DNA from: Escherichia coli
Lineage (GTDB): Bacteria; Pseudomonadota; Gammaproteobacteria; Enterobacterales; Enterobacteriaceae
Strand: one strand, 5' to 3'
NCBI RefSeq assembly: GCF_003019035.1
Contig: NZ_CP027447.1
DNA: 64,000 nt
The notes under the pieces are model-generated. The model saw nothing but the letters and a program-made list of their open reading frames with translations, did not search any database and was not told the origin of the DNA. Made by a program: the position numbers and the translations under genes. Shown piece after piece: positions 27,356 through 34,313 of the stretch (position 1 is its first letter; each line of letters begins with the position of its first letter).

Positions 27356-29125
27356 TCAGTTGCCGTTAACAATGCTGATAACGCTGCTGCGGGCCGGCGT
27401 GGTCAGCGTGGCCATGACTTCATCCAGTGCGGCTTCCGGTACGCCGTCCGGGTACTGTGCCGTTAACTGGCGGTAATGTTCCGGCGTCCAGGTAAGGCCG
27501 TCGGCGCTGAACTTATCGCGCAGGGCTTTCGCGGCCTCCACATGAGTCATGGGACGTTGTTCAGTGCGCGGTCTGCGTACATCAGAGGCCTGACCGCGCT
27601 TCGGTATACAGGCCGGAAGTGTGGCGTCATCAATATGTTTATACGGGTCAAGCCGCCCGCCGAACGGCAGCGCCTTCGCCTTGCGTGCGGCAGCTGCATC
27701 TGCGGCGTTGTCTGTACCGGTGACCAGCGCTTCGGTTTCTTTTGCCGCCGTCTGTGCCGGTGTTTCCGGCAGGGCTTTGTAACTTTCGCCAAATACCGCC
27801 GCGCCTTCAGCAAAGCCAAACTCGTTCTTTCTGACCTCTTCGACCAGGAAGAACGTCTCGTGGCCGTCCTCACCGGTCAGAACCACCTGTGCCACATCGC
27901 TGCGCCATGGGTTACGGGTAATCATCAGTTTTTCACCAACCAGTACGCCCGGTACCGTTGATACGTCAAATTCAGTGCCCCGGAACGAGACACGAAGTTT
28001 TGGCGTGACTTTGCGGAGTTCTGGTGTCGTCACAGCCAGTTCACGGCATACCTCAACGGAAGGCGCTTTTTTCAGCTGCTCAGCAGTAATCTTCAGCCAG
28101 ATATCCGTGCGGGTTTTACCGTGGCGGCTGTGAACAGCTGTTGCGTTAAAGTGGCTACGCCATTTCGCGGCCAGCGCGTTGAGTTCTTCCAGACTGTGAA
28201 CCGGCCGGAACTTCAGACCCGGCTCCAGCTTGCGTTCGATAATGTCACGCGCCTTTTCCACCTGTCCGGTGGCGCGGGCGTTATGCGGCTTGTGCGCTAT
28301 CAGGTCGATGCCCAGTGAGCGGCACATGTTTTTCGTCATACCCGCGGTGTTTGCCGAGCCGGGGTCGAGATAGAGTATTTTCGGCACGCCGTGCAGCACG
28401 TCTGCGCCGCCACGCTCCTGCATGGCGTTGATAAGCACAGAACACAGGTTCTCACCGGATTCCGCACCCGTCACATACTCAACGTAAATCCAGCCGCTGG
28501 CATGGTCGGTAATCTCGTAACTCCACACGCGGTCACTGGCGATACGGGCAAGGTTAGCGGGCTTGTTCTTGTAGAACTTCGCGCTGTCCATCACCTGCAG
28601 CCCTTTGTGTCCATTGCTCAGGTAGTAAAGCGTGCAGAGAGAGGCATCAATCTGCCAGACATGATTGGGATGCAGACTGGCCACTTCGGTATGCGGCGCA
28701 GGGGCATCCAGTTGTTCCGGGTGCAGGCCATAGTTACGCAGGGCACGGCTGATAGCATCTTCGGACAACGGGAAAAACTCACCGGTGGTTTCATCTGTTC
28801 TGCCTGCGGAGATAAAGCCGTTAGCCCGCAGGGTTTCCACTGCATCTGCGATGGAATAGAGACGCTTACCGTTCTTGCGGGTGGCCTCACGTAGTGTGGC
28901 AGATATCAGCGCGGCTTCGTCGCGGGTCAGGGCGCTGCGCCCGGCATCGGCGCGTTTTTTGCGTTTATCAGTCACAGAGACCTCCTTCAGCCTGCGCAGC
29001 AGAGTGGCGCGGGACATGCCAAGTTCAGCACAGGCGGCGTCATATATTGCACCACGTTTACCATGCCCCGCGTCACGTGCCGCGCGGGCGACATAAACCA
29101 GTCGTTCAGTCAGGGCAGCATTCAT
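27356..29125 (-). CDS. Mu-type DDE transposase (589 aa)
   Basis: It has an N-terminal HTH and an rve-like core (HPNHVWQIDASLCTLYY..., LDPGSANTAG). Its position upstream of the MuB-like gene fits. Confidence 0.9.
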   Translation of the reverse strand: MNAALTERLVYVARAARDAGHGKRGAIYDAACAELGMSRATLLRRLKEVSVTDKRKKRADAGRSALTRDEAALISATLREATRKNGKRLYSIADAVETLRANGFISAGRTDETTGEFFPLSEDAISRALRNYGLHPEQLDAPAPHTEVASLHPNHVWQIDASLCTLYYLSNGHKGLQVMDSAKFYKNKPANLARIASDRVWSYEITDHASGWIYVEYVTGAESGENLCSVLINAMQERGGADVLHGVPKILYLDPGSANTAGMTKNMCRSLGIDLIAHKPHNARATGQVEKARDIIERKLEPGLKFRPVHSLEELNALAAKWRSHFNATAVHSRHGKTRTDIWLKITAEQLKKAPSVEVCRELAVTTPELRKVTPKLRVSFRGTEFDVSTVPGVLVGEKLMITRNPWRSDVAQVVLTGEDGHETFFLVEEVRKNEFGFAEGAAVFGESYKALPETPAQTAAKETEALVTGTDNAADAAAARKAKALPFGGRLDPYKHIDDATLPACIPKRGQASDVRRPRTEQRPMTHVEAAKALRDKFSADGLTWTPEHYRQLTAQYPDGVPEAALDEVMATLTTPARSSVISIVNGN

Positions 29126-30382: not shown

Positions 30383-30693
30383 ATATGTGATAACCTGTTG
30401 CATATGTGGAAAATTTATGCCGCATTTGACGTGGGTTTTAATCCCAGTTTTACGGCAATTTCATGGGCTTTGCCGTAACGAGCTTTGGTCTGTCCATTGA
30501 GAACACGATAGACCTCATTGCGGCTGTAGCCGTGTTCTTCGGCCCAGCGGGTAAACGTGATACCACGCTGACGGAAGAGATTTTTAACTTGTTCGGAAGT
30601 CATTGTTGTCTCCTTTGTTGATGCAATGATGTTTGTTTTATATGTGATAGATTATGTGAACTATTGTTCTCATTGTCAATGAGGTTTATGTGA
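30383..30693. promoter_or_regulatory. five copies of WTATGTGR (candidate repressor/Ner operators)
   Basis: ATATGTGA at 30383 and 30640, ATATGTGG at 30402, TTATGTGA at 30652 and 30686. All five read the same way on the + strand, and the last overlaps the repressor GTG start. Confidence 0.5.
30415..30603 (-). CDS. Ner/Cro-like small HTH regulator, first gene of the early operon
   Basis: 62 aa (ITFTRWAEEHGYSRNEVYRVLNGQTKARYGKAHEIAVKLGLK), divergent from the repressor gene. Confidence 0.7.
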   Translation of the reverse strand: MTSEQVKNLFRQRGITFTRWAEEHGYSRNEVYRVLNGQTKARYGKAHEIAVKLGLKPTSNAA

Positions 30694-31115
30694 ATTTTGA
30701 TTCTCTTTGCGCGTCGCGGTTCAAAGCTGAGCGTTCGCGGTTATCACTCAAGCAGGCTGAAGTAGCAGCCCTTTGTGGCGTTTCAAGAGAAATGTGGGGG
30801 AAATATGAACGAGGGGTTGCTGTTCCCGGAGGTGAGTTACTTGCAGCCTTTGCAAGAATTGGGGCCAATGTACAGTTCATTCTTACCGGGGAGTCATCAG
30901 GTATAACTTTATCACGTGATGAAATGGAGTTACTGCAGCACTACCGGCAAGCACCGTTACAGGTCAAAGGTTCAGTTTTGTCGGCTTTGACTACTGGCTC
31001 CTCCAGAGAACGGGCGGAACAGGTTATTCATGGAGATGTTCTGGGGAATGTTATCAAAGGTAACGTAACCATAGGAACAGGTGGAATAATGAACAAAAAT
31101 ACCAAGAGAAGATGA
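30690..31115 (+). CDS. XRE-family HTH protein, probable prophage repressor (c analogue)
   Basis: GTG start with GAGG upstream. HTH LSLKQAEVAALCGVSREMWGKYERG. Divergent from the early operon. The C-terminal tail is VIHGDVLGNVIKGNVTIGTGG. Confidence 0.75.
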   Translation: MNFDSLCASRFKAERSRLSLKQAEVAALCGVSREMWGKYERGVAVPGGELLAAFARIGANVQFILTGESSGITLSRDEMELLQHYRQAPLQVKGSVLSALTTGSSRERAEQVIHGDVLGNVIKGNVTIGTGGIMNKNTKRR

Positions 31116-32098
31116 GTAAAGAGAAGCAAACAGTTAACGGGGATGTGGGTAACGTTGTCAGCGGTGATGTTACCATTCATAACTATTCTGCTGACATACT
31201 TCCTTCTGCCCAGCAACCAATTTCGTTGCTGCAAAAACGCGATTTACACAGATTGATGGATGAATTGGTTGATCTGGGGGAAAGTAAGCGCGAGCTATGG
31301 ATGACGATCCACACGAAACTTAATACCAAAACAGTTAATGAAATGACTGCGGCTGATTATCATGGTGCGGTTGAGATCCTTCAGAGATATGCACAACAGA
31401 TCCAGAATATGAAGGACTGTAATCTTCTGGTCAGCAAAATAATGGCGCTTACTGACCCTGGGTATCGTCTTGACCGTGACAGATACTGTCTGAAGCATTT
31501 CGGTACAACCCATCTTAAAGGCCTGGACAAAGAGCAGTTGCAGGCTGTGTTTGGTTATTTTGATGATCTGCTGAATATTCGTGATGAGAGTAAAACTCTA
31601 TCACCTCCATCGGAAAGCGGTGCAAAATCAGTCGCAACTGTACCAACCAGAAGCCGGAAGCCTCATGTAGTAGTGTTGGGGGGAGCGTTAGTTCTTGTAG
31701 CAATATTTTTCGTGGGAATGATTGTGTTCGCTGGTAAATGGGGAAATGCTAAAGCAGTAGCTTCTACTGAAACCAGCGTTTTTAACATTAAAACCAACGA
31801 CAAAATAATAGAAGATTCCATCCCCGCACTGCGCAGCATGTTTCCAGGATTAAATAAGTACTCAGATGATTTCCATTCGGTTTCAAGCTACAAGCAAAAA
31901 ACGGGCTGGCATACCCTTAAATTTACTGTATCAGCAAAGGCATCCGTCCCCGAAAATTATAGTGTTAAGGGCAAGGTTTGTTACATTAACATAAACCCTG
32001 ATGGTAGTTATGCTCGGGTTTTGACTGCTCCATGTCGTTCACTGCTACTTGATCAGCAAAGCACTCCTGACAGTAAGTACCGTTTTATTCTTAAATAG
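31112..32098 (+). CDS. orphan 328-aa single-pass membrane protein coupled to the repressor gene
   Basis: ATGA overlap with the repressor stop. The N-terminus is VNGDVGNVVSGDVTIHNY, the TM segment is HVVVLGGALVLVAIFFVGMIVFAG, and about 110 aa follow it. The coding DNA is AT-rich. Confidence 0.7.
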   Translation: MSKEKQTVNGDVGNVVSGDVTIHNYSADILPSAQQPISLLQKRDLHRLMDELVDLGESKRELWMTIHTKLNTKTVNEMTAADYHGAVEILQRYAQQIQNMKDCNLLVSKIMALTDPGYRLDRDRYCLKHFGTTHLKGLDKEQLQAVFGYFDDLLNIRDESKTLSPPSESGAKSVATVPTRSRKPHVVVLGGALVLVAIFFVGMIVFAGKWGNAKAVASTETSVFNIKTNDKIIEDSIPALRSMFPGLNKYSDDFHSVSSYKQKTGWHTLKFTVSAKASVPENYSVKGKVCYININPDGSYARVLTAPCRSLLLDQQSTPDSKYRFILK

Positions 32099-32182
32099 AA
32101 AATAACAGCTGAATTACCATGGGAGCAGAAAAAAGACAAAGGCGATATCATGCTGCGTTCTAAAATTTTAATGTAAAAGGTG

Positions 32183-32290
32183 ATGAACATGGCAGGGATT
32201 CAGGTTATCGCAGGAAGTTTTCCTAAAGGGTGGGCAAGCATGGGGTTCGGTACCATCGTGTTTGCCACCAATCCATGGAACGATGGGTAA
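32183..32290 (+). CDS. possible 35-aa peptide ORF (weak call)
   Basis: MNMAGIQVIAGSFPKGWASMGFGTIVFATNPWNDG, with AAGG close upstream. It lies inside the region between the 328-aa gene and the terminator. Confidence 0.2.
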   Translation: MNMAGIQVIAGSFPKGWASMGFGTIVFATNPWNDG

Positions 32291-32338
32291 TGTCTGCATT
32301 TTCATAATCTGTAAGCCTTTTACAATTATTAAAAATAT

Positions 32339-32448
32339 GGCAGGCTAGTCTGGTCTCGCGAGACTGACTGAACCTCGGTCGGCTCACAGTGCATTCCTGT
32401 GGGACGATGGCCAGCCCGGCTTTCGGGTGCCGGGCTGGTCGTTCTTTC
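32339..32448 (+). ncRNA. candidate structured RNA / 3' UTR element ending in a terminator
   Basis: It contains the 12-nt palindrome GTCTCGCGAGAC, the hairpin CACAG-TGCATTC-CTGTG and a long terminal stem. No ORF on the + strand spans this stretch. The 5' end is a guess. Confidence 0.3.
32411..32448 (+). terminator. rho-independent terminator closing the repressor-side transcription unit
   Basis: CCAGCCCGG-CTTTCGGGTG-CCGGGCTGG followed by TCGTTCTTTC. The stem can be extended by GACGA/TCGTT. Confidence 0.6.
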
Positions 32449-32494
32449 ATGATGCGGCAGGGATAGTGGGATTTCTGTTAATGTGGTTTAGGGA

Positions 32495-32710
32495 TTATCC
32501 GGGGTGATTGTCTGCCTTTATCTGGTCCAGGGCATAAGTGATCCCTTCAGCAAAAACAGAAGTATCGAACTGCTTTTGTATTTCCTGAAAATGAACAGTG
32601 GCACGACAGATACTCAGTTCTCCGCGATGTAACCGGATAATATCTTCCAGAACATTGTTCACTGCTTCGGCACGGCGCTGATGTTCTGTTAACGTTAATC
32701 GGGGATTCAT
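32495..32710 (-). CDS. orphan 71-aa protein
   Basis: Strong SD (TAAGGAG, 6-nt spacer). Its ATG shares 2 nt with the ATG of the divergent 134-aa ORF. Confidence 0.55.
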   Translation of the reverse strand: MNPRLTLTEHQRRAEAVNNVLEDIIRLHRGELSICRATVHFQEIQKQFDTSVFAEGITYALDQIKADNHPG

Positions 32711-33113
32711 GATGCACTCCTTAAATGATGATTTTTATGTACTCACCGGCAAAATATTCTGCCGATTACTGAACACGCATCCGGCACCTCAGGTTTTGAT
32801 TTATTCTGGTTTTTTCGATATCCCGGACCAGGTTGATCACGACCAGAAAAAGTGCCGGTATTTTATTGATACGCTGATATGGCTTCGGGATAACAGCTAT
32901 ATTCGTTACTCTCAGTTGCTGGCTGTGGGAGCGGCTGATGTCGTCCTCACGGAAAAAACGCTCTGTCTGCTCAATGCCATGCCGACCTTTCTGCAGCCCC
33001 GGCCCGTACCATTTAAAGAGTTGCTTCTGGATGCAGTAAAAACCGGCGAAAATGCAGTCATCGCTGAATGCGTATCCCGGATTATGCGTTACGTGTTTAA
33101 TGAACGTAAGTGA
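32709..33113 (+). CDS. orphan 134-aa protein, possibly winged-helix-like
   Basis: Coding-like codon pattern with GGGGA upstream. The segment IDTLIWLRDNSYIRYSQ...VVLTEKTLCLLN loosely resembles a wHTH recognition helix and wing. That reading is an inference. Confidence 0.55.
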   Translation: MMHSLNDDFYVLTGKIFCRLLNTHPAPQVLIYSGFFDIPDQVDHDQKKCRYFIDTLIWLRDNSYIRYSQLLAVGAADVVLTEKTLCLLNAMPTFLQPRPVPFKELLLDAVKTGENAVIAECVSRIMRYVFNERK

Positions 33114-33832
33114 GGTTTATCTGCTGTCTGCATAATCCCGATAGCCAGTGCGAGGGGAAGTAATTCCGGGGAAACTCTTTCAAACAGCGATGCCCATTCT
33201 CCTCTCGCCATCACTCTGTCCAGCCCGCCCCCCAGCTGCATTTCAGCAATCTTCCTGATTTCCCGGAACAACGCCGCTTTGATCTCTTCATGCTCAGCTT
33301 TATTTTCCGGTGTCAGAATGTATTCGTCGAAGAACCGGGGAGGCTGGTTAACGGGGATTGTGTTTACCGGGATGTGTTCCTGTTTCCCGTACTTCGGGGA
33401 CGAACAACATTCTGTTGGCTGACCGGTGAGTTTACGTAACTCCTTCATGAGCAGCTCCTGATCGTAAACTGTCATCAGTGCCGCAATGGTGGCATGCAGT
33501 GCATCGGGCAGTATCCAGGGTTGCCGGCCCGTGGGGCATATAACATCCAGTAGCTCATTCGTCCGACAGATACGCTCCTCTCCGTATGACAACAGGCCCT
33601 GTCCCGTGTATTCCTCCAGCCTGATCACTGTGCCAGCCCGTGGCTTCTGCCAGGTCGTCAGATCATCGCCACTCATACGGCGCTCATTCTCCACGTCAGC
33701 AGCATCGACAATGACGCTGTTTCCGAGTTCCTGTTTCACCACTTCCTCTATCCGCGCCAGTACGTAACTTTTACCGCTGCCCACAGGACCGGACACGGTG
33801 ACAGTGATGACCGGATTCAGTGTATGTGTCAT
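33089..33832 (-). CDS. orphan 247-aa P-loop protein
   Basis: Walker A VSGPVGSGKSYVL at residues 13-25 and a possible Walker B SVIVDAAD. SD GAGGAG. Divergent from the lysis genes, and its 3' end overlaps the 134-aa ORF by 25 nt. Confidence 0.7.
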   Translation of the reverse strand: MTHTLNPVITVTVSGPVGSGKSYVLARIEEVVKQELGNSVIVDAADVENERRMSGDDLTTWQKPRAGTVIRLEEYTGQGLLSYGEERICRTNELLDVICPTGRQPWILPDALHATIAALMTVYDQELLMKELRKLTGQPTECCSSPKYGKQEHIPVNTIPVNQPPRFFDEYILTPENKAEHEEIKAALFREIRKIAEMQLGGGLDRVMARGEWASLFERVSPELLPLALAIGIMQTADKPHLRSLNT

Positions 33833-33904
33833 GTTGCATTCTCCTCTGTGAATAATTCATCGTTTATCCTGCACATCCCGTATCCCCGGCTCTCTTAACG
33901 CGCT

Positions 33905-33943
33905 TTAAAATCCTTCGCGCCCTGTATTTGTGATGCTGTCTCC
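33905..33943 (+). promoter_or_regulatory. late-promoter-like bipartite motif, copy 1 (upstream of the lysis genes)
   Basis: TTAAAATC at 33905 and CTGTCTCC at 33936, with 31-nt start-to-start spacing. TAAAAT is -10-like, no -35 is evident, and a C-tract lies upstream. Confidence 0.4.
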
Positions 33944-33962
33944 ACCAGACAAGGAGACACAC

Positions 33963-34313
33963 ATGAAAAACCTGAAAAAATTCATTCCCCCTGTTAAAAA
34001 ACCTCGCCTCAGCGGCTGGCTGCTGACCTCAGTGCTGTTGCTGGGCACCATCGCTCTGGTCTCGCCACAGCAGCTGCCTGTTGTGATCTACAAGCTGGCA
34101 CTCATCACGCTGGCAGCAGTGCTGGGTTACTGGCTTGACCGTTCACTCTTCCCCAAAGCCCGTCCCGGTCAGTACCTGAAACATGAAGACAGGCTGATGG
34201 CTGAAGGGCGTTTCCCTGTGCAGACCGGCCTTCACCTTGTATTTTCTGCTGCGTTAATCCGCCGTGCACTGATTGTTGCAGCGGTCTGTCTGGCTGTGGC
34301 AACAGGACTGTGA
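33963..34313 (+). CDS. putative holin (116 aa, 3 TM)
   Basis: SD AAGGAG. MKNLKKF... has three hydrophobic segments. It is the first gene of the lysis cassette, so the call is by position and topology. Confidence 0.6.
   Translation: MKNLKKFIPPVKKPRLSGWLLTSVLLLGTIALVSPQQLPVVIYKLALITLAAVLGYWLDRSLFPKARPGQYLKHEDRLMAEGRFPVQTGLHLVFSAALIRRALIVAAVCLAVATGL

Follow-up and report, generated by a model that had tools for sequence, protein, structure and literature searches.

A conserved structured small RNA, a candidate antisense regulator of phage dam genes, orphaned by recombination in an Escherichia coli prophage

The window analysed here is a stretch of 64,000 nucleotides (nt) from Escherichia coli (NCBI RefSeq assembly GCF_003019035.1, contig NZ_CP027447.1) that contains a transposable, BcepMu-like (Bcepmuvirus) prophage of this host. 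Downstream of the 328-amino-acid (aa) gene of the prophage, whose stop codon ends at position 32098, lies an interval of about 350 nt that the original prediction, made from the sequence alone, had described as a structured, essentially non-coding unit. That description fitted the right ~100 nt, which on comparison with related loci is an intact member of a conserved family of structured small RNAs (sRNAs) at 32353-32448 on the plus strand, and not the left ~200 nt, which consist of a spacer and two gene stumps. The individual features that had been listed (the stop at 32098, the hairpins, an A/T-rich run and a short open reading frame (ORF)) were all present in the sequence. In Gamma- and Betaproteobacterial phages and prophages the RNA appears as the constant back-to-back neighbour of one clade of Dam, a DNA adenine methylase; by the same comparison the copy in the window is intact and, its partner dam having been lost, orphaned.

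The predicted sRNA gene is about 96 nt long and would begin at G32353 and end within a U-rich tail. It opens with a 5'-terminal hairpin, SL1a, made of the perfect 12-nt palindrome GTCTCGCGAGAC at 32353-32364, one base to the left of the position first given for it (about 32354); a hairpin is predicted here in almost all family members, and the SL1a sequences differ among members yet are nearly always perfectly palindromic. The 5' strand of helix P1, GAAC (32370-32373), pairs with GTTC at 32441-32444 and thereby closes a three-way junction that holds two further hairpins. The first of these, SL2 (32379-32407), consists of TCGGCTCACAG, the loop TGCATTC and CTGTGGGACGA, includes CACAG-TGCATTC-CTGTG at 32385-32401, and has a stem that is the most conserved sequence of the RNA, with a G·A mismatch in the lower stem of the E. 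coli variant. The second, SL3 (32409-32440), is a G+C-rich hairpin of 12 bp that includes CCAGCCCGG-N10-CCGGGCTGG at 32411-32438, followed by TCGTTCTTTC. The P1 3' strand GTTC and the U-rich tail TTTC (32441-32448) form the probable 3' end and the right boundary of a mobile sRNA-dam cassette.

The family was assembled by using the Dam protein of a relative as bait, which brought in 80 dam loci, one per species, and a covariance model, R1, was built from 46 sequences with the helices P1, SL2 and SL3. Positions 32340-32451 scored 79.5 bits against this model built from relatives (E = 6e-20), and the same segment is 100% identical to the copy in the dam-linked E. coli 12089. The 97-nt plus-strand RNA folded with z = -4.88 and none of 200 shuffles folded as well, while the minus strand of the same 97-mer gave a weaker fold (z = -3.22). 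An RNAalifold consensus computed on the plus strand from a MAFFT alignment contained SL2, SL3 and outer pairs, with compensatory changes at 13 of 37 pairs. Helix P1, formed between the stretch that follows the 5' hairpin and the one immediately behind SL3, was spotted by inspection of a wider set, where it occurs as GGGAGC/GCUCCC, GGAAGC/GCUUCC and CAGGGC/GCCCUG, and as GAAC/GUUC in the window. The consensus fold thus runs from the 5' hairpin into the three-way junction, with P1 closing SL2 and SL3, and from there directly into the U-rich tail.

Covariation within this fold was extensive. Across an alignment of 83 sequences, 92.7% of the cells in paired columns were paired (72.5% in shuffled and 35.6-45.7% in slid controls), and the covariation score was 0.614, compared with 0.231 for shuffled alignments, none of 500 of which reached the observed value, and at most 0.145 for slid controls. 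Double compensatory changes were seen at 28 of the 30 base pairs, a count inflated by the fitting of the alignment to R1; all six column pairs of P1 had such changes, with 96.7% of cells paired, and compensatory changes occurred in all 13 column pairs of SL3. The apical stem of SL2 changes from CACAG/CUGUG to CACUG/CAGUG in Burkholderia and to CACAUG/CAUGUG in VP882. In unconstrained minimum free energy (MFE) folds of 81 single sequences, P1 was recovered in 75, SL2 in 73 and SL3 in 77. The hairpins, on whose conservation and covariation in related elements the original prediction had staked its claim beforehand, therefore proved to have both.

The transcribed strand was assigned as plus because G·U cells exceeded A·C cells (337 versus 54) and because a U-rich run directly follows P1. 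Many of the G·U pairs in SL2 are valid on the plus strand only, as is a U·G wobble in SL3 of KP12, and the U-rich run right after the P1-closed junction is found in nearly all members and on the RNA strand only. A structure on the dam-sense strand, that is an element of the 5' untranslated region (UTR) of dam, was considered and rejected: its RNAalifold consensus was poorer, the lower SL2 stem was lost and the G·U/A·C counts favoured the plus strand.

One strand of the junction, (G)CCUUGG, is nearly invariant and single-stranded. This, together with conserved tandem G·U pairs in SL2 and the obligate co-inheritance of the RNA with a single enzyme, would suit an RNA whose junction binds Dam, Com, RNA polymerase or a small molecule and so titrates the methylase or switches its own terminator. 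In several lineages the P1 5' strand can moreover pair alternatively with sequence of the -10 region, giving competing helices. However, a transcript that starts 7 nt past the -10 element leaves the competing 5' arm untranscribed, so that no switch would result; the unconserved downstream context excludes cis-regulation of a downstream gene; and binding of any such ligand would have to be supposed from sequence features. We consider a protein-binding or ligand-sensing RNA of this sort distinctly unlikely. A related proposal, in which the RNA is a dedicated structured partner of the Dam module and binding of a protein or metabolite switches pairing between the base of SL1 and P1, thereby gating methylase expression or activity, is judged rather improbable; if true, it would describe an RNA-controlled epigenetic cassette that moves as a unit between unrelated phage types.

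The palindromic nature of the 5' hairpin was also seen at the DNA level. Across the aligned loci (L007-L090) it is an almost perfect palindrome of 12-16 bp with a self-complementary centre in nearly every lineage, the centres being CGCG, TCGA, CCGG, ACGT, TGCA, GGCC and others; a 4-nt loop would be self-complementary by chance in 1/16 of cases. Possible causes are a site for a dimeric protein, identical hairpins on both transcripts, or template-switch mutation.

Homologues of the window segment were traced outwards from E. coli. Positions 32261-32450 recur with ~85% identity in Klebsiella phage KP12 and Escherichia phage Phi06_2974 B and with ~93% identity in E. coli A24, and all three diverge from the window right after 32450, i.e. 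past the U-rich tail. The ~190 nt upstream of dam are similar out to Photorhabdus, Xenorhabdus, Brenneria, Symbiopectobacterium, Serratia and Citrobacter, where helix-preserving substitutions are obvious, and a like architecture upstream of dam was found in Burkholderia, Paraburkholderia, Nitrosomonas, Methylophilaceae and the phages phiE125, KS9, VP882 and B3. R1 matched 83 loci (E = 1e-8 to 1e-28) in phages and prophages of Gamma- and Betaproteobacteria, BcepMu-like ones included, and every match was opposite in strand to dam and immediately upstream of it or of com-dam; reverse-strand scores were at most 25.7 bits. Counted from the dam side, 83 of ~88 loci had the RNA, which was missing in L010, L032, L046, L071 and L077, while the locus L059 is cut by a contig end. 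Counted from the RNA side, where IMG/VR was scanned with a degenerate pattern, 80 loci were among the matches listed, 73 of them with an adjacent divergent dam; three of the remaining seven match R1 and lie at a contig or locus edge, and four have no R1 match. The spacing between the N-terminal region of Dam and the CCUUGG motif is fixed at ~48-83 nt. As homology between lineages ends at the U-rich tail, the mobile unit would be the sRNA gene together with the divergently oriented dam, with or without com.

No gene on the RNA strand is conserved downstream of the RNA in the contexts compared: the next gene is a holin in Photorhabdus and, in antisense orientation, Rz in phiE125, tail gene D in VP882 and the 71-aa gene in the window. 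A leader of the late (lysis) operon, comparable to lambda pR'-6S-tR' or put RNA, had been an attractive candidate, since the RNA comes directly before a conserved motif (described below) and the holin in Photorhabdus, Xenorhabdus and Brenneria; it was ruled out by phiE125, KS9, VP882 and B3, which keep the RNA beside dam at different genome positions, and by the unconserved downstream context. A type I toxin-antitoxin system was likewise rejected, the partner being a 254-aa enzyme and not a small hydrophobic toxin.

Several variants of the cassette were noted. At a subset of loci (L037, L049, L057, L058, L082, L083, L086, L090 and others) the RNA is 150-300 nt further from dam, with a small gene between the two; the B3 gene in this place is the annotated Com-like translational regulator ORF47, so that some cassettes would combine the RNA with Com-type control. 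Locus L010, from Pantoea stewartii, has a conserved dam start, Shine-Dalgarno sequence (SD) and sRNA promoter up to the -10 element, after which the RNA body is replaced by unrelated sequence; in mirror image to the "dam-less" RNA of the window, this dam is naturally "RNA-less". In Paraburkholderia copies (L056, L065, L068, L074, L076, L079, L080, L084 and L085) the palindrome (GGT)CAAAGTnACTTTG is found ~20-40 nt past the RNA 3' end, just beyond the cassette boundary.

The linkage to dam bears on whether the RNA acts in trans, as an sRNA that has its own promoter, pairs with host or phage mRNAs, perhaps with Hfq, and stands beside dam merely as a passenger of the same mobile cassette. Its own promoter and terminator-like end, the nearly invariant single-stranded (G)CCUUGG as a possible seed, and the persistence of an intact RNA in the window without dam would all agree with such a role, as would the report (PMC12197685) that VP882, which has a family member in front of its methylase gene gp37, encodes the Hfq-binding, trans-acting sRNA VpdS. 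A free trans regulator, however, needs neither an essentially absolute linkage to dam nor a fixed spacing of ~48-83 nt, and next to the terminator of this G+C-rich, highly structured RNA there is no A/U-rich site of the Hfq type. VpdS is listed at ~50 nt, compared with ~100 nt here, and is unlikely to be the VP882 member of this family. The dam-less state, finally, is confined to the window and 2 of 5426 E. coli genomes and says little about selection. We regard the trans-acting alternative as unlikely.

The 47 nt in front of the RNA (32306-32352) form a control region shared by both strands. On the minus strand it contains the dam SD and start region AAAAGGCTTAC (complement of 32311-32321), and on the plus strand a -35-like TTTACA (32319-32324), the TG of an extended -10 element (32338-32339; a 16-nt spacer follows the -35-like element, and the form is TGG-CAGGCT) and the -10 hexamer CAGGCT (32341-32346), ~7 nt ahead of the 5' hairpin. 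The hexamer is TANNNT or CANNNT in the family (TAGGCT, TAGAAT, TACGCT, TAAACT and further variants; the E. coli and KP12 group has CAGGCT); its A2 and T6 are invariant in 75 of 75 distinct sequences, a G at -14 is present in 60 of the 75, the distance to the 5' hairpin is fixed and a weak -35 of the TTnnCA type is usual. The RNA thus appears to have its own extended -10 promoter element on the strand opposite dam, which, with the terminator-like 3' end, bears out the suggestion that a discrete structured RNA would be made here. The -10 originally proposed for it, TTAAAAATAT at 32328-32337, is not the conserved one, and this A/T-rich run is probably the promoter spacer; GAAAAT/AAAAAT (32331-32336) was dropped as a -10 in favour of CAGGCT/TAGGCT/TAGAAT, which aligns across all lineages. 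A second start upstream of G32353 may exist.

The -35 region of the sRNA lies over the SD and start of dam on the opposite strand, or over the com start in B3-type loci. A search of the cassette for a dam promoter, inside or beyond the RNA, found none that is conserved among the 78 members compared: on the dam strand the best TANNNT position was common to 12 of 78, versus 68 of 78 on the sRNA strand. Two pairings involving the dam SD were tried and rejected. For pairing of CCUUGG with the SD, inspection revealed no co-variation: the junction varies at its fourth base while the SD is constant. An SD/anti-SD pairing AAGCCU-AGGCUU within the dam leader is invariant in enterics and is lost where the -10 is TAGAAT (Burkholderia), so that it probably just reflects conservation of the promoter and the SD.

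This arrangement would also be compatible with a purely DNA-level insulator, in which an outward promoter and a strong terminator block or collide with polymerases moving towards dam and quickly stop antisense transcription, the RNA itself having no function. The sRNA promoter indeed sits on top of the dam or com translation start and faces incoming transcription in phiE125, KS9, VP882, B3 and PhiKM, and the terminator coincides with the cassette boundary. Any terminator would do for that purpose, however, and the covariation in three helices and the conserved G·U pairs, SL2 stem sequence and junction strand would be left unexplained; we consider the insulator quite unlikely.

The left part of the interval, 32099-32305, was resolved as a recombination scar. 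The spacer at 32099-32188 (plus strand), which in the ancestral cassette separates the 328-aa gene from the next gene and includes the ribosome-binding site of the latter, has ~99% identity to E. coli IAI39-type prophages, where a 193-aa gene comes next. Of this membrane-protein gene the window retains a 5' stump of 26 codons, MAGIQVIAGSFPKGWASMGFGTIVFA, at 32189-32267 on the plus strand, as found by translation of L211:4578-5159 and alignment. The junction is an 8-bp microhomology, GTTTGCCA, at 32260-32267 that is present in both parental sequences at the crossover when the window, IAI39 and E. coli 12089 are aligned together. Beyond it, alignment to the dam-bearing relatives begins at 32261, and codons 1-15 of a phage dam, MKMQTLPIVPWIGGK, can be read on the minus strand between 32305 and 32261, within a 45-aa minus-strand ORF (alignment with the dam-bearing L001 and L003; Dam of L001 begins MKMQSLPIVPWIGGK). 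No full-length dam frame was found here, only codons 1-15, compared with 254-284 aa in relatives.

The distribution of the two halves was examined by megablast against 5426 complete E. coli genomes. The segment 32260-32750 is shared by 634 of these, of which only two, CUVET21-PYO5 and A24, also have 31900-32260 in common with the window; in annotated examples of the other genomes the left neighbour is a minus-strand dam. Conversely, 126 E. coli genomes, IAI39 among them, share 31112-32267 and then continue into the 193-aa gene. Since homologies of the IAI39 type and of the dam type meet at the shared GTTTGCCA, the window is, on these alignments, a recombinant of two prophage variants, the recombination having taken the 3' part of the 193-aa gene and all of dam beyond codon 15; on the same grounds the position of the RNA behind the repressor and 328-aa genes is a recent accident. 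The 350 nt are in this way explained as a recombination scar and an orphaned RNA copy, to which the two adjoining orphan protein modules are unrelated. The earlier suggestion that the RNA is a component of the neighbouring orphan genes accordingly fell away, as its constant partner elsewhere is dam, of which 15 codons are left here.

It could be supposed that the element is only the intrinsic terminator and 3' UTR of the operon formed by the repressor and 328-aa genes, as it is the first strong hairpin with a U-rich tail that is reached when one reads on from the 328-aa gene along its strand. However, in 632 of the 634 element-bearing E. coli genomes and in all other lineages a convergent dam lies between the element and the repressor, or the element has a quite different position; it has its own conserved promoter, and its present position is the recent accident just described. 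This explanation is therefore very unlikely to be sufficient. The related proposal of a 3' UTR regulator stood in a secondary sense only, in that the RNA does lie at the 3' end of the repressor/328-aa unit in this recombinant, where it probably ends the repressor-side transcript ahead of an antisense run into the convergent 71-aa gene.

The short ORF of 35 aa that had been put forward for a translational fusion runs from 32183 (or a GTG at 32180) to 32290. It is made up of two in-frame upstream codons (from 32183) and the stump of the 193-aa gene, departs from the parent frame past the junction and continues through antisense-dam sequence to its end. A good Shine-Dalgarno, AAAGGTG, inherited from the 193-aa gene, could speak for a small protein, but the product would be the truncated N-terminus of the 193-aa protein fused to antisense dam, and as a unit the ORF is not conserved in relatives, occurring in the recombinant only; it is a truncated chimera and not a gene. 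A 75-aa minus-strand ORF (32223-32450) was rejected as well, for it spans the RNA helices, is not maintained in relatives, and the changes within it follow pairing and not codons. That either ORF encodes a small protein is extremely unlikely.

The reading that we favour, with a confidence only a little above even, is that the RNA is an antisense regulator of the dam leader of the countertranscript type. In PhiKM, phiE125, KS9, VP882 and B3 dam is directly downstream of co-directional genes and the RNA gene fills the gap. Given these upstream genes and the lack of a conserved dam-strand promoter in the cassette, dam is probably transcribed through the sRNA gene, and the RNA would therefore be fully complementary to the dam leader, as in the geometry of plasmid countertranscripts. 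A dam transcript reading through from the upstream genes would be met, while nascent, by the sRNA, which would pair with its leader, probably first via the SL2 loop, and the pairing would reduce expression of dam through cleavage by RNase III, through attenuation or by interfering with translation. A further contribution, transcriptional interference, would come from RNA polymerase that sits at the sRNA promoter or fires from it.

A number of observations weigh against this countertranscript role. The overlap of the dam transcript with the RNA was derived from gene order, and the start, end and expression of the RNA were likewise deduced from sequence. In the "no-cargo" BcepMu-like prophages of Photorhabdus, Xenorhabdus and Brenneria the gene beyond the RNA is a divergent holin, so that dam must have some promoter there, and the search for one in these prophages found none. 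The conservation of the SL2 stem and of CCUUGG exceeds what antisense pairing needs and hints at a protein or tertiary contact, and the covariation counts are, as mentioned, inflated. As for the E. coli variant in the window, its P1 has 4 bp only, its tail has only three consecutive U, and its MFE structure is a different fold (-52.2 kcal/mol, compared with about -40 kcal/mol for the consensus fold). In addition, the tail run is short (UUUC), and a simple terminator scan of the window called neither the hairpin of SL3 nor the 3' end.

Comparison with known RNAs gave no match at threshold. At the gathering score, Rfam 15 had 0 matches in the 64-kb window and nothing in 20 Burkholderia-type loci; at E <= 10 only a chance terminator-like match was found in the region, and RF00236 matched neither the window nor VP882. 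The Rfam scan and covariation check that had been recommended for the locus thus yielded no family at threshold alongside the double changes at 28 of 30 pairs. Below the 45-bit gathering threshold, the nearest family, RF00236 (ctRNA_pGA1, a plasmid countertranscript RNA, ctRNA), did align with phiE125 (38.4 bits) and L029 (30.7 bits), end to end with SL2, SL3 and the tail and on the same strand as the RNA. Like the plasmid ctRNAs, the RNA described here passes from a recognition hairpin to a G+C-rich hairpin and a U tail, lies on the opposite strand upstream of a gene and measures ~80-100 nt. Unlike ctRNA_pGA1, it carries one more hairpin at its 5' end and a helix, P1, by which a three-way junction is formed ahead of the U tail, and its neighbour in all 83 loci is a phage dam or com-dam and not a plasmid rep leader; regulation by it is, in contrast to the ctRNAs, proposed from sequence.

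CopA/CopT of R1 and RNAI/RNAII of pT181 or pMV158 are countertranscripts alike in mechanism class. Lambda OOP, P22 sar and IS10 RNA-OUT are short, constitutive antisense RNAs of temperate mobile elements that oppose a neighbouring gene and end at an intrinsic terminator. The latter overlap the coding region or ribosome-binding site of their targets, whereas the RNA here would cover the leader only, from ~47 nt upstream of the dam ATG, and in the Rfam scan of the window no sequence or Rfam relationship to OOP, sar or RNA-OUT was found. The EcoRI antisense RNAs Rna0 and Rna1 are located inside the restriction gene of a complete restriction-modification pair; they resemble the present RNA in being small antisense RNAs tied to a DNA-methylation system, but differ in that the partner here is an orphan phage methylase, the RNA is intergenic and there is no sequence relationship.

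The com-mom control of Mu and the com-methylase operons of Mu-like prophages are similar in that a phage DNA-modification gene is held under unusually tight control at several layers, and the RNA upstream of com-dam in B3-type loci occupies the position of the mom control region. Control of mom by C, OxyR/Dam and Com proteins has been described, and no antisense RNA (PMC3299994). The Dam clade linked to the RNA does not belong to the Hia5/Hin1523 family. A link to the non-specific methylases Hia5/Hin1523 or M.EcoGII was considered for B3 ORF48 and rejected, as ORF48 is not close to Hia5 and M.EcoGII is of the beta class according to the literature; B3 ORF48 was absent from the 1000 closest sequences. 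No earlier description of this RNA was found in the literature searched, VpdS of VP882 being an unlikely exception. As far as comparison allows, the RNA would therefore be of the cis-antisense or countertranscript kind, with an unusual branched terminator and an unusually strict methylase partnership, and no Rfam 15 family covers it.

Among the accessory genes of temperate phages, those for orphan Dam methylases are some of the commonest; they affect restriction evasion, host epigenetics and phage decisions, and little is known of their control outside Mu com-mom. If the countertranscript reading is true, one Dam clade spread over BcepMu-like, phiE125-like, VP882-like and B3-like phages travels with a dedicated countertranscript, which would provide a testable control mechanism and a new RNA family for annotation.

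In the part of the prophage around the interval, a transposase (27356-29125, minus strand) is followed, towards the repressor, by a DUF3102 protein and two small DNA-binding proteins, and then by the helix-turn-helix repressor (30690-31115, plus strand) and the 328-aa gene (31112-32098, plus strand). To the right lie the 71-aa gene (32495-32710, minus strand), convergent on the repressor-side unit, a 134-aa gene on the plus strand, a 247-aa gene (33089-33832, minus strand) and, on the plus strand, the holin and SLT lysis cassette with the holin ATG at 33963. Pfam and PHROG scans of the genes adjoining 32099-32450 returned only families of "unknown function". The start of the 328-aa protein overlaps the repressor stop (ATGA), and the gene is likely to be expressed in the lysogen because it is co-transcribed with the repressor; the protein has one predicted membrane-spanning segment, VVVLGGALVLVAIFFVGMIVFAG, matches PHROGs of unknown function and has a weak match to one membrane-protein moron family. 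The 247-aa protein has an N-terminal Walker-A-like GPVGSGKS and a weak, sub-threshold match to AAA_30 (17 bits versus 27); relatives have fragments annotated "KAP family NTPase" or "ABC transporter ATPase" at this gene position, and the protein is possibly a moron for defence or exclusion.

Two copies of the motif CTnTTAAYGYnnTTTA(AAATCC) are present in the window. A partial copy, CTGTTAATGTGGTTTA (32475-32490, plus strand), is located right after the sRNA, outside the RNA and at the left edge of the inserted cargo genes, and a full copy at 33892-33907 with AAATCC (to 33913) precedes the holin ATG by ~50 nt; between them lie the cargo genes for the 71-aa, 134-aa and 247-aa proteins. Cargo-free relatives (Photorhabdus, Xenorhabdus, Brenneria and Symbiopectobacterium) have a single copy, and KP12 and Trabulsiella have two copies around different cargo. 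Its TTAAnGC/GCnTTAA part is nearly palindromic. The motif may act as a late promoter or as an activator site, and cargo exchange may use it as a recombination hotspot. Just downstream of the full copy, the hairpin TGTCTCC-N9-GGAGACA (33937-33959) buries the holin Shine-Dalgarno (AAGGAG) in its 3' arm; it is kept in E. coli, KP12, Trabulsiella, Serratia, Citrobacter, Brenneria and Symbiopectobacterium, which suggests translational control of lysis timing.

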